A stretch of 21,694 nt of DNA, taken from assembly GCA_051652765.1 (NCBI GenBank), contig JBOFUV010000108.1, forward strand, positions 1 to 21,694, written 5' to 3'. Shown one piece after another: positions 6,001-9,000 of the stretch. Origin of the DNA: Microcoleaceae cyanobacterium. Its GTDB lineage: Bacteria > Cyanobacteriota > Cyanobacteriia > Cyanobacteriales > Microcoleaceae. Made by a program: the position numbers. How positions within the stretch are numbered: position 1 is the first letter of the stretch; every line of letters begins with the position of its first letter.

Positions 6001-9000
6001 AAAGGGAACCAAAGTAATTCACCGCCATGGTCTGCTCAAACACCTCAATGGGCAAGTCTTGAAAGTAGCCCGGTTGAGCCATGCCAGCAGAAGTGATCAG
6101 CAGATCAGGGGGGCCAAAGTGGTTCACTGCTCTGTTAATCCCATCTTCGGCCTGACATCTCTCTGCCACATCAGCCGTAACGGTTAGGATTTGGGATACG
6201 GTTCGGGGTAGGGTTGGGGATTGAAGAGAATGGGATTGAGCAGAATCAGCTTCAGGTTCAACTTCAAGTTCAGCTTCAAGTTCAGCCTTGGCGATCGCCA
6301 GTTTCTCTGGGCTGCGACCGATTAGGGTAACATTTGCTCCAGCTTGCACCAACAATCCTGCCGTTGCTTTGCCAATGCCACTGGAGCCGCCCGTGATGAT
6401 GGCATGGTATTGATGGAGACTCACAGGGCCGATGCCCTAGAACGAAATAAATGGGCATGGTTCGGATTGTATAAGCCAGAGCGTCTGTGCTGCTGGGCTT
6501 GAACCGGAGTCAAAGCCGGACTGACTAGATATAGCGTTGTCCGTTCTAACTTTTCCCTGCGAGTTACTGCTGCCATCTCAGTGAGTGGGACAATCCAAAT
6601 CGCTTCATCAGGCCAACCCAGCCGATAACAAATAGCAACTGGAATGTCTGAGGGGTAGTGCTCTAATAAACGCGCTTGGGACTCCTCAATATGACGAGCA
6701 CTCAGGTACAAACACAGACTCGCTTGATGGGCGGCGAGACTGGACAAATCTTCCCTGGATGGGACTGCTGTTGCCTGCCCACTGACTCGGGTCAGAATAA
6801 TGGTTTGCACCAGTTCTGGAACCGTGAGTTCAATTTGCAACTTGGCGGCAGCAGCTTGGAACGCACTAATCCCTGGGACAATTTCAATTTCAATTCCAGC
6901 TTCGGTCAACAGTTGCATCTGTTCGTAAATGGCCCCGTACAAACTTGGATCACCTGAATGCAGGCGCACAACTGCTCGTCCCTGACGCACCTGTGCAATC
7001 ATCAGCGGGATAATCTCTTCCAGGGTCTTATTTGAAGTTTTAATCAGTTCAGCATCAGGGCGAGTTTCCTGCAGAATTTGTTGCGGCACTAAAGAATCTG
7101 CAAATAGGATCACGTCTGCCCGAGCGATCAATTTCTGTGCTTTTACCGTCAATAGCTCCGGGTCTCCCGGCCCTGCCCCAACAATATAGACTGCGGGTCG
7201 AAGTAAAACGGTCTCAGAAGTTTTCATCAGCAATCGTCAAAAACACAACTTTTTTTCCAGAAATTCCGGATAGTATCAGGTTTCTCTCGATAAAGAGAAT
7301 GGTAGATGCACCCTGGTTGATGCCCTGGAAAAATTTCCAGGGCTTTTTATTACCTTAAATTTACTACTCTAAACTTACTACTCTAAACTTACTACTCTAA
7401 ACCCATCTGTAACGAGTCTTAAATCAAGGAGGATGACGGTAGAGATGCCTAAAATAGCCACTTCCAGAACCAGATTTATATAATTTGTTGATTCAAATTT
7501 TGTGCCCTGGTTAGACTGAGGGTTAATGGGCAAGCCTACTGCTGATTAGCCACTTCACACCCAGAACTTGTAGTTGATTTAGATACTGTTAACGCTACCA
7601 TATGGGGAACTTCCCGTGGGGTGTACTTTTTCACCAAAGATTTCCCTTGATAGGCCAGAGACGTACTGGCTCCGGAATCGACCATCACAGCTTCTCGAAA
7701 TCCTGCCTGAGCTAAAATTTGCCCTAATGTCACTGAATCCACCCGTTCAGCAGAGACTCCAATCACAGGTCGGCCACTGCGATGAATTCCCCAAAATGCC
7801 CGATGACGAGCTGCATCAAATCCATACAAATTCCCAAATGTTGCTTCGGGCTGAGGTTGAAAATTTTTCACCAAGAACGCTGCGCCGACAAAAGCATCTG
7901 TTACGCCTGGTAACGCCTGTTGAATGCCTGTAAGGCTACCATGTCGATCAGGATCGAAAGCGATAAACTGTACCTGTTCAGGGCTAATTAAAATCAGAGG
8001 ACGATCTTTGAGTTTGGGATTCTCACTCCTGTTTCCCGGAAAAAATTGACCGGGATTCTGGCTGAGAACAGGGCCAACCATATTAGACGTTGAATGCTTC
8101 AGAGAAAAGAAGCCGCCATCAACCGCAGCAATAGCCTCTGTCTTTGCCAAAATCTCCTCCAAGGGATAGCGTTTATCTGCTAAAACCGTGATCGGCTGTC
8201 CCCCAGAAATTAAAGTCAAAGGAATCTCACCCAATGTCACCTCATGCTTCATCACTGGGGCATTAAAATCAAAACCCGTTTTCCAAGGTGGCAATTGTAA
8301 TCCTCCAGAAGCTTGTTCAATTGCCCGTTCAATTCCGGCCTGACCAAAGCGATCAATTGCTAGTAAACTTTTCGATTCGTTGCTAAAACGACTAATATTG
8401 TTCTCCATGGTTAAAGCAGCTTCATACCCTGCAACTTTCATCCAAGCACTCACCCGTTCATCATATTTTCCTTCTGGATAAGTAAAGTATCGGATTGGAA
8501 GATTCAGCCGATCTTCTAAGATTTTTTTAGATGCGATCACTTCCTGTTGAAGTTGCAGGTCAGAAACCTGAGTCAAATCTTTTGGGTGACTTAGACTATG
8601 AGAAACAATTGTAATTAATGGATTAGCTGCCATTTCTTTCAGGTGTTGCCAGGTCAAGGTGGATCGACCTGCTATTTTGCCATCAATTTTATCGGTATAG
8701 ATTGAAAATGCTGCCGGGTAATTATACTTTTTTAGCAGTGGATAAACGACTTCGTAATGACCCACATAGCCATCATCAAACGTCAAAACAATGGGTTTTT
8801 CAGGGAGAGATGATCCAGTTCTTAGGTGATCTACTAATTGCGTTAAGTTGATAGGGGTTAATCCATTCTCCTGAATGGCAGCTAGATGTTGCTCAAATGC
8901 CTCAATAGTGACATCAAAGGAAACCTGTTTCTTAGGTAAAATATCGTGGTACATCATCACTGGAACTCGTGCCAATCTAGCCTGATCATGAATAGTTGGC

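Follow-up and report, generated by a model that had tools for sequence, protein, structure and literature searches.

What does a gene for NsiR1, a small RNA described as an early marker of heterocysts, do in a cyanobacterium that has no nitrogenase genes? The gene lies in a 21,694-nt stretch of DNA, the whole of which is referred to here as the window (contig JBOFUV010000108.1, positions 1 to 21,694; C108 in our numbering). The host is a member of the Microcoleaceae, a family not known to form heterocysts. The genome-wide survey's note had reported two NsiR1 genes with DIF1 promoters in this genome. It had proposed that a HetR/DIF1/NsiR1 module predates or is independent of heterocysts and has another role here.

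In the window, cmscan places RF02399 at 7300-7351 on the forward strand, with 53.3 bits (gathering score 39) and an E value of 3.9e-08. The match is 52 nt long and spans model positions 1-60 of 60. NsiR1 is recognized by the conserved 5' segment UGGUAGAUGCACCCUG and a terminator hairpin that follows it, ~60 nt in total, and the window copy has this architecture. The 14-nt core GTAGATGCACCCTG (7302-7315, +) is identical in all 62 copies of a set drawn from 17 genomes and 10 families; the set is unselected and lies outside the presumed heterocystous family. The core is identical as well in 134 named-locus matches, loci that were themselves selected for that core. The core is likely to be a seed or a protein-binding segment. 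The predicted intrinsic terminator (7322-7348, +) comprises a hairpin of nine pairs (7322-7343) with TTTTT after it. The hairpin is reproduced in the MFE fold of the RNA, and a hairpin followed by a T-run is present in 60 of 60 related NsiR1 copies examined.

A second copy of the gene is located at C123:18221-18274(+). It scores 45.4 bits in a whole-genome search that also re-finds the window copy, and none of 14 control genomes has a match above the cut-off. The two terminator stems have different sequences, and both pair. Both genes announced by the survey are confirmed with their scores, and the hairpin is intact in each. A coding reading was set aside, as the short frame that opens with an ATG in the core is not preserved from one copy to the other. 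In addition, the genome contains three further NsiR1-like genes with ordinary promoters of the TTGACC-N17-TATATT type. None of the other Rfam families accounts for these sigma-70-type genes. In another genus, one copy (locus L179) has a sigma-70-like promoter, so promoters other than DIF1 can express the NsiR1 core.

The DIF1 motif TCCGGA, read from the sequence at 7265-7270 (+), has the position of a -35 element in a promoter of the sigma-HetZ type. Its first base precedes the Rfam 5' end (7300) by 35 nt and the core G (7302) by 37 nt. The offset at the C123 copy is identical, in agreement with the distances that the survey gave for both copies. The window copy thus carries the DIF motif around -35 of NsiR1 as defined in PMC4030482. 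A -10-like TCGA (7287-7290, +) lies 16 nt past the hexamer and departs from TGNA by one mismatch, at the G; the predicted start, T 7300, lies 9 nt past this element. The published DIF1 consensus is TCCGGA-N16-17-TGNA-N7-9-T, and the scan in the source paper itself permitted two mismatches (PMC13342950). The window copy reads TCCGGA-N16-TCGA-N9-T and the C123 copy TCCGGA-N16-CGGA-N9-T, each with one mismatch in the -10 element. Related promoters have nGnA in common at the -10 place.

A match to the full consensus is weak evidence on its own, because an equally loose rule (TCCGGA exact, no more than one mismatch in TGNA) admits 296 promoters among the 1488 oriented TCCGGA sites of the whole genome. 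What carries weight is that the hexamer keeps its position. In 5.04 Mb there are 744 occurrences of TCCGGA, or ~1.5e-4 per position, and by our arithmetic the chance of finding it within 1 nt of a fixed offset in two of two copies is ~2e-7. A scan of public genomes permitted anything from 26 to 36 nt between the hexamer and the core. Its 134 matches show gaps of 30 nt (43 matches), 31 nt (86), and 32 nt (5) and nothing else, and the spacing is equal in heterocystous and non-heterocystous hosts. In the 62 unselected copies, exact TCCGGA lies at -38 to -36 in 47, a one-base variant lies there in 14, and one copy has neither. The departures are single-base changes at the same place (TCCTGA or TCCCGA). 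NsiR1 is known for expression that depends on HetR and NtcA and is restricted to differentiating cells. An NtcA box, GTAN8TAC, upstream of the -35 hexamer is found in 0 of 55, 0 of 73, and 0 of 62 promoters (190 in total) and at neither copy here. Therefore, this box does not separate heterocystous from other hosts.

The genome encodes parts of a circuit that may read such a promoter. hetR (PF03574, 262.7 bits) is located at C49:20120-21049. hetZ (NF037963; 645.2 bits, cut-off 550) is located at C3:36979-38142(-), as found by scanning 30 ORFs of contigs C3-C7 against NCBIfam. The ORF directly downstream of hetZ is likely PatU; it matched no NCBIfam family. A HetZ-related gene is present at C19:3384-4475, HetF is encoded on C46, and three PatX-like ORFs encode RG(S/T)GR peptides. 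One of them, a 70-aa ORF, stands behind a DIF1 promoter of exact consensus. hetZ is preceded by TCCGGA-N16-AGGA-N8-T, the hexamer starting 77 nt before the start codon. A whole-genome search for the canonical HetR palindrome gave no strict match and five looser ones, all hairpin-like and none informative, and so lends no support to the HetR-to-hetZ step here.

In Anabaena, the ECF-like sigma factor HetZ reads DIF1 promoters and HetR activates hetZ, according to a 2026 paper that the survey's note predates or overlooks (PMC13342950). The direct link to NsiR1 would therefore run through HetZ and not through HetR. The parts of the HetR/DIF1/NsiR1 module that the survey named are all present, and its wording needs to be changed on this link. 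The firing of the HetR-to-HetZ circuit most likely sets the time and place of NsiR1 synthesis, because the circuit genes are encoded and one PatX-like gene and hetZ carry DIF1-type promoters. On firing of the circuit, sigma-HetZ would read the DIF1-type promoter and transcription of NsiR1 would start from T 7300. The circuit may be wired differently outside heterocyst-formers, since the PatX/HetR relation in Leptolyngbya BL0902 is described as departing from the Anabaena model (PMC11298460).

Nitrogenase genes are absent. In this genome nifD reaches 43 bits at best (cut-off 654) and nifH 216 bits (cut-off 394); the latter match we take to be ChlL-like. The completeness of the assembly is 99.97%. 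The survey's statement that the genome has hetR and hetZ and lacks nitrogenase genes thus stands.

The distribution of NsiR1 across cyanobacteria separates the RNA from nitrogen fixation. In the Microcoleaceae, RF02399 is over the cut-off in every one of the 41 genomes and 15 genera sampled, consistent with the survey's observation that every genome searched has the RNA and that this genome is not special in having it. In a sample of 141 genomes from the phylum, NsiR1 is present in 33, and HetZ is over its cut-off in exactly those 33. HetR is present in those 33 and one more. nifD is present in 26 of the 33 and lacking in seven; it is also present in seven genomes without NsiR1. NsiR1 therefore tracks HetZ, not nif, across this sample, in line with the proposal that the module predates or is independent of heterocysts. 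The 33 genomes represent 10 families, several of them from other orders of the class.

The same distribution bears on the possibility that the promoter is independent of HetZ here, with another sigma factor or regulator reading TCCGGA and NsiR1 serving as a general stress or housekeeping sRNA. Such a role would fit the -10 mismatch, which falls on the G of the consensus, and the sigma-70-type promoters of the three NsiR1-like genes here and of the L179 copy elsewhere. It would also fit the NsiR1-like RNA of Limnospira, which is reported to respond to gamma irradiation (PMC8400943). However, the overlap of NsiR1 and HetZ is exact (33/33), and the position of the hexamer is fixed across at least 10 families, with single-base departures at the same place. 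We therefore consider independence from HetZ unlikely.

Decay is a further possibility, in which the two genes are relics of a heterocystous or diazotrophic past that have lost their function. The genome has only two copies over the cut-off, compared with 3-18 in its relatives, and the nif genes are gone, as a relic would predict. But neither copy has lost its hexamer or its terminator, and the core shows no variation. The terminator is kept in all 60 related copies, and the stems of the two copies here differ and yet pair. NsiR1 is, moreover, carried by all 41 genomes of the family and by 10 families of the phylum sample. A relic is thus highly improbable.

The neighbourhood of the window copy suggests a possible cis function. 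cobM (6421-7233, -) is divergent from NsiR1, whose gene occupies the opposite strand 67-118 nt upstream of the cobM start; any cobM leader extending that far would be perfectly complementary to NsiR1. Same-genus relatives carry two tandem NsiR1 copies beside cobM, the neighbourhood being kept in two genomes. There is a precedent in Nostoc, where NsiR1.1 is antisense to the hetF 5' UTR (PMC9045159). Yet on the minus strand no promoter-like site for cobM is found beyond 7300, and the window contains no cobalamin riboswitch. The C123 copy, in a 770-nt spacer, has no close divergent gene, the nearest minus-strand start being ~650 nt off, and NsiR1 copies in other genomes stand in many different gene contexts. 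It is accordingly improbable that NsiR1 acts as a cis antisense RNA on cobM.

In Nostoc, NsiR1 represses hetF, as an antisense RNA, and the hetP homologue alr3234; this target pair was examined and rejected for the present genome. The HetP family NF037966 has no match here, and the positive controls (G097, G135, and G086) match. hetF is located at C46:17788(-), on a contig separate from both NsiR1 copies. The two copies, one on C108 and one on C123, do not form a tandem array beside it, as the survey had noted in stating that they do not adjoin hetF. Duplex energies were calculated in silico for the first 26 nt of both copies against the region from -100 to +30 of 4181 ORFs. The hetF 5' region shows no complementarity, with background quantiles of 0.80 and 0.53. 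The quantiles for the two copies are 0.07 and 0.38 at hetZ, 0.24 and 0.34 at the likely patU, 0.46 and 0.25 at hetR, and 0.42 and 0.49 at the HetZ-related gene; those of the three PatX-like ORFs range from 0.37 to 0.83. The survey's suggestion of another role here is a fair inference, because neither of the Nostoc targets fits.

No trans target stands out in this calculation, the best duplexes being the expected chance extreme of a 4181-gene background. Candidates from the top of the list, no better than the background tail would give, include a 2811-aa secreted protein (C74:78810), the start codon of which lies inside the paired stretch, and a 167-aa ORF (C41:12066) that we take to be CheW-like. 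Stretches of at least 10 nt complementary to NsiR1 positions 1-18 occur at 38 sites, five of which are NsiR1 or NsiR1-like genes. None of the other sites is within one mismatch of the 14-mer.

Considered together, the segment 7265-7351 is probably a complete, self-contained transcription unit for an NsiR1 of ~50 nt, and the RNA is probably a sigma-HetZ-driven, trans-acting sRNA that forms an output of an ancient HetR/HetZ circuit. NsiR1 would act by base pairing through its invariant 5' segment, possibly with the RNA-binding protein PatR, which binds NsiR1 in Nostoc and is described as widely conserved (PMC11797042). The analysis establishes the gene with its architecture, the co-occurrence with HetZ, and the absence of nif; that NsiR1 depends on HetZ, acts in trans, or has a part in cell fate is our inference. 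NsiR1 seems to belong to an older cell-fate circuit.

A broader interpretation can be offered tentatively, and we regard it as possible rather than probable. NsiR1 might be an ancestral core output of the HetR/sigma-HetZ/PatX-PatU circuit of HetZ-bearing, mostly filamentous cyanobacteria, coupled to HetZ as tightly as PatX is to HetR. The partner of the 14-nt segment might be an ancestral mRNA or protein (PatR, for instance) other than hetF and the HetP homologues. In filaments that form no heterocysts, NsiR1 might mark a minority of cells laid out in a pattern, or help to settle their fate, these cells being of an undescribed type, and the heterocyst functions of the Nostocales might be later additions.

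The role of HetR, PatX, and HetZ in non-heterocystous filaments has been termed 'a mystery' (PMC11298460). A 70-nt nsiR1 promoter reports single differentiating cells in Nostoc (PMC4030482). NsiR1 with the same promoter type in non-heterocystous filaments therefore offers a ready-made reporter for where the circuit fires, be it in single cells that form a pattern, in every cell, or under some stress only. In addition, the exact co-occurrence of NsiR1 and HetZ suggests a conserved core, beyond the heterocyst-formers, of a sigma-HetZ regulon that was defined in 2026 in Anabaena alone.

The novelty implied by the survey is overstated, as NsiR1 homologues in non-heterocystous strains (PMC4734099 Table S3, PMC8400943) and a predicted DIF1 promoter of patX-hetR in a nif-less strain (PMC11298460) are already in print. 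Table S3 of PMC4734099 (2016) lists NsiR1 homologues in 38 of 89 genomes, 27 of them heterocystous; the non-heterocystous entries include Trichodesmium IMS101, Arthrospira PCC 8005, Oscillatoria PCC 7112, Microcoleus FGP-2, Oscillatoria PCC 6506, and Oscillatoria PCC 6304. For Trichodesmium, the dRNA-seq study PMC4143802 excluded RNAs shorter than 300 nt, and two of its supplement files contain no position near the NsiR1 locus. An expressed NsiR1-like RNA was reported in 2021 in Limnospira (PMC8400943). This transcript, RNA162 of Limnospira indica PCC 8005, is 57 nt long and comes from an irradiation transcriptome; the host is described as non-heterocystous and non-diazotrophic, with a hetR-patS locus. 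RNA162 is likened to the window copy by its description as an NsiR1 homologue, and it was detected as a transcript.

A close counterpart is NsiR1 of Nostoc/Anabaena sp. PCC 7120. The window copy shares with it a full-model match, an identical 5' core, a length of ~50-60 nt, and an intrinsic terminator. In both organisms every copy is preceded by a DIF1 (TCCGGA) promoter of its own, at an equal distance from the core (PMC4030482, PMC9045159). The genome described here differs from PCC 7120 in lacking the 12-copy tandem array, the linkage to hetF, a HetP-family gene, complementarity to hetF, and nitrogenase genes. The bit score is also lower, 53 here compared with 65-78 in the presumed Nostocaceae family. 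DIF1 promoters of patX have reportedly been found in non-heterocystous filamentous cyanobacteria by Elhai and Khudyakov in 2018. A DIF1 promoter is also predicted for patX-hetR in the nif-less Leptolyngbya BL0902 (PMC11298460). These promoters resemble that of NsiR1 in that a DIF1-type promoter would serve a part of the HetR circuit in hosts without heterocysts or nif; those of patX drive protein genes, for an inhibitor peptide, whereas here the product would be an sRNA. The sigma-HetZ regulon of Anabaena PCC 7120 shows a similar promoter plan, from which both copies here depart by one base in the -10 element, and hetZ is present here with a likely patU directly downstream (PMC13342950). The main text of that paper contains no mention of nsiR1, sRNAs, or non-heterocystous species.

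The window carries one NsiR1 gene (RF02399) at 7300-7351 on the forward strand, found by cmscan with a score of 53.3 bits (gathering score 39, E 3.9e-08) over 60/60 model positions. The whole-genome RF02399 search recovers this copy and a second one at C123:18221-18274(+), with 45.4 bits; the same family scores above the cut-off in 0/14 control genomes. The window copy ends in a terminator, composed of a 9-pair GC-rich hairpin at 7322-7343(+) and a following TTTTT. Both genes and this hairpin had been proposed in the genome-wide survey's note and are confirmed here. Immediately 3' of the terminator lies a tandem repeat with the 14-nt unit TAAACTTACTACTC (7356-7402, 3.4 copies, 96% matches). 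By cmscan, the whole window contains two Rfam families, NsiR1 and the 3' end of a 23S rRNA gene at 21597-21694(-), which runs off the contig end.

The hexamer TCCGGA occupies 7265-7270(+) and precedes position 7300 by 35 nt and the G of the core GTAGATGCACCCTG by 37 nt. Its offset is identical in the C123 copy, in accordance with the earlier claim for both copies. Because TCCGGA occurs 744 times in 5.04 Mb, by our own arithmetic the chance of an equal offset in 2/2 copies is roughly 2e-7. On the evidence of ChIP-seq, cryo-EM, and work in a reconstituted system, excerpts of PMC13342950 (2026) show HetZ to be an ECF-like sigma factor recognising the DIF1 promoter consensus TCCGGA-N16-17-TGNA-N7-9-T; there, hetZ is directly activated by HetR, and PatU3 is the likely anti-sigma factor. 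The NsiR1 promoters read TCCGGA-N16-TCGA-N9-T(7300) in the window and TCCGGA-N16-CGGA-N9-T on C123, each with one mismatch in the -10 element, and in both, transcription is predicted to start at position 1 of the Rfam model. Taken alone, this fit is loose, since 296 of the genome's 1488 oriented TCCGGA sites pass an equally loose rule; the exact consensus occurs at 37. The weight of the evidence for the promoter rests on positional conservation.

A pattern scan for TCCGGA-N{26,36}-GTAGATGCACCCTG, with one genome per prokaryote species, gives at least 125 stretches. The 80 fetched loci contain 134 matches, and among the matches listed the gaps are 30 (n=43), 31 (n=86), and 32 nt (n=5), with no others. 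Among these, the spacing is equal in named Nostocales and named non-heterocystous hosts, the latter including Microcoleus, Trichodesmium IMS101, Lyngbya PCC 8106, Moorena, Symploca, Geitlerinema, Nodosilinea, Leptolyngbyaceae, Elainellaceae, Spirulina, and Crinalium. Because the scan selects for the motif, we also fetched unselected RF02399 matches (n=62 copies) from 17 genomes that do not belong to the presumed heterocystous family. The 14-nt core is exact in 62/62 and an exact TCCGGA begins at -38 to -36 in 47/62; TCCTGA or TCCCGA takes its place at the unchanged position in 14/62, and a sigma-70-like promoter replaces it in 1/62. A hairpin and then a T-run follow in 60/60 copies far enough from the locus end, with predicted RNA lengths of 49-65 nt.

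NsiR1 is above the cut-off in 41/41 genomes and 15/15 genera of the window's family, as the survey's note had claimed for every Microcoleaceae genome searched. In a phylum sample of 141 genomes, NsiR1 is present in 33 and HetZ above the cut-off in the identical 33, while HetR matches those 33 and, more weakly, one more. The exception to this three-way co-occurrence is a 3.3-Mb genome of family f12 (G167), with a divergent HetR (215 bits) and neither HetZ nor NsiR1. We give no P value, because related genomes are not independent. nifD is present in 26 of the 33 and in 7 genomes without NsiR1; the 7 NsiR1 genomes without it include this one. Therefore, NsiR1 tracks HetZ rather than nitrogen fixation. 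Family f5, which we take to be the heterocystous one, has NsiR1 in 16/16 genomes, in long arrays and with the top scores, and carries split nifD genes. The HetP family (NF037966) has no match in this genome or in G008 and G042 (two f1 genomes and one f2 genome searched), and matches three control genomes (G086, G097, G135), being present in nif-less G086 (family f15, another order) and in presumed Nostocaceae; thus HetP is not co-extensive with HetZ and NsiR1.

The genome encodes HetR (C49:20120-21049; PF03574, 262.7 bits) and HetZ (C3:36979-38142(-); NF037963, 645 bits, cut-off 550), with a HetZ-related paralogue on C19. For nifD the best match is 43 bits (cut-off 654) and for nifH 216 bits (cut-off 394), the latter taken to be ChlL-like; assembly completeness is 99.97%. 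The reported presence of hetR and hetZ and absence of nitrogenase genes thus stand. A 327-aa ORF overlapping the hetZ end matches no NCBIfam family; solely from its position, we take it to be PatU. hetZ has its own DIF1-type promoter, TCCGGA-N16-AGGA-N8-T, whose hexamer begins at -77 relative to the start codon (38142, - strand). Ahead of this promoter, within the region from -77 to -180, lie direct repeats CCCAAGATAGTTCCCAA(AAAAT). This arrangement suggests autoregulation by sigma-HetZ and some factor that binds at repeated sites. Three small PatX-like ORFs combine a hydrophobic N-terminus with a C-terminal RG(S/T)GR motif: C61:41024-41236(-), the sole one with an exact sigma-HetZ consensus promoter; C49:19501-19773(+), immediately upstream of hetR, with the one-mismatch hexamer TCCGAA; and C28:51178-51339(+). 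An 813-aa ORF on C46 is assigned to hetF by 61% identity over its N-terminal 397 residues to HetF of comparison genome G097 (NF045509, 1370 bits), which adjoins a 12-copy NsiR1 array.

NsiR1-like genes of a second class lie at C27:25889-25944(-), C95:5940-5993(-), and about C95:5500-5570(-). They have GATGCACCCTGATGGTAGGG and a terminator in common, fall short of the Rfam cut-off with 30.4 and 22.1 bits, and match no other Rfam family. In the first two, an ordinary promoter (TTGACC-N17-TATATT or TATCGT) takes the place of TCCGGA. The class may represent a constitutive NsiR1 paralogue.

That the literature treats NsiR1 as heterocyst-only holds for PMC4030482 and for excerpts of the review PMC6596454, but not throughout. 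Table S3 of PMC4734099, as excerpted, lists homologues in 38/89 genomes, 27 of them heterocystous; six fall in the Oscillatoriales block (Trichodesmium IMS101, Arthrospira PCC 8005, Oscillatoria PCC 7112, Microcoleus FGP-2, Oscillatoria PCC 6506, and Oscillatoria PCC 6304), and five more are placed by tab count alone. Passages of PMC8400943 report that Limnospira expresses an NsiR1-like RNA and remark upon the paradox. Parts of PMC11298460 predict that patX-hetR of nif-less Leptolyngbya has a DIF1 promoter and, citing Elhai and Khudyakov 2018, assign both HetR and PatX to almost all filamentous cyanobacteria. Within the literature searched, which excludes Ionescu 2010, Elhai and Khudyakov 2018, Brenes-Alvarez 2019/2020, and the PMC13342950 datasets, we found no report linking NsiR1 to HetZ or describing NsiR1 DIF1 promoters outside heterocyst-formers. 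NsiR1 in this family is universal and already partly documented; the added value is that it is coupled exactly to HetZ and that its promoter geometry is conserved.

The window NsiR1 lies on the opposite strand from cobM (TIGR01465, 337 bits), antisense to positions 67-118 nt upstream of it; this neighbourhood is kept within the genus, and NsiR1 could act in cis on the cobM leader. However, neither a promoter nor a riboswitch for cobM turned up beyond 7300, and the C123 copy has no neighbour of this kind, making such action improbable. Copy number varies within the genus, as loci of two same-genus relatives (L184, G010:C100; L185, G022:C51) each carry two tandem NsiR1 genes ~190-200 nt apart beside cobM, and this genome one. 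We read NsiR1 here as a putative trans-acting sRNA expressed from a probable sigma-HetZ promoter. Against a 4181-gene background, duplex energies are unremarkable for hetZ, hetR, the likely patU, and the PatX-like genes, and the best-ranked candidates do not exceed the background tail. By analogy with Nostoc, where PatR binds NsiR1, PatR is a possible protein partner; homologues are reported in 1655 cyanobacterial genomes (both from excerpts of PMC11797042).

Two Nostoc targets are described (excerpts of PMC9045159): the hetF leader, to which NsiR1.1 is antisense, and the hetP homologue alr3234, whose start region base-pairs with NsiR1.4. Neither target is applicable in this genome: hetF lies on a contig other than those of the NsiR1 copies, in line with the note's remark that they do not adjoin it as in Nostoc, and its 5' region has duplex energies with the two copies within background (quantiles 0.80 and 0.53 of the 4181 genes); an alr3234-type target is inapplicable because the HetP family has no match. 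The textbook function therefore cannot apply, and the suggestion of another role is a reasonable one. NsiR1 here is genuine, an ordinary representative of a known sRNA family, and its host is one in which the function known from Nostoc does not fit.
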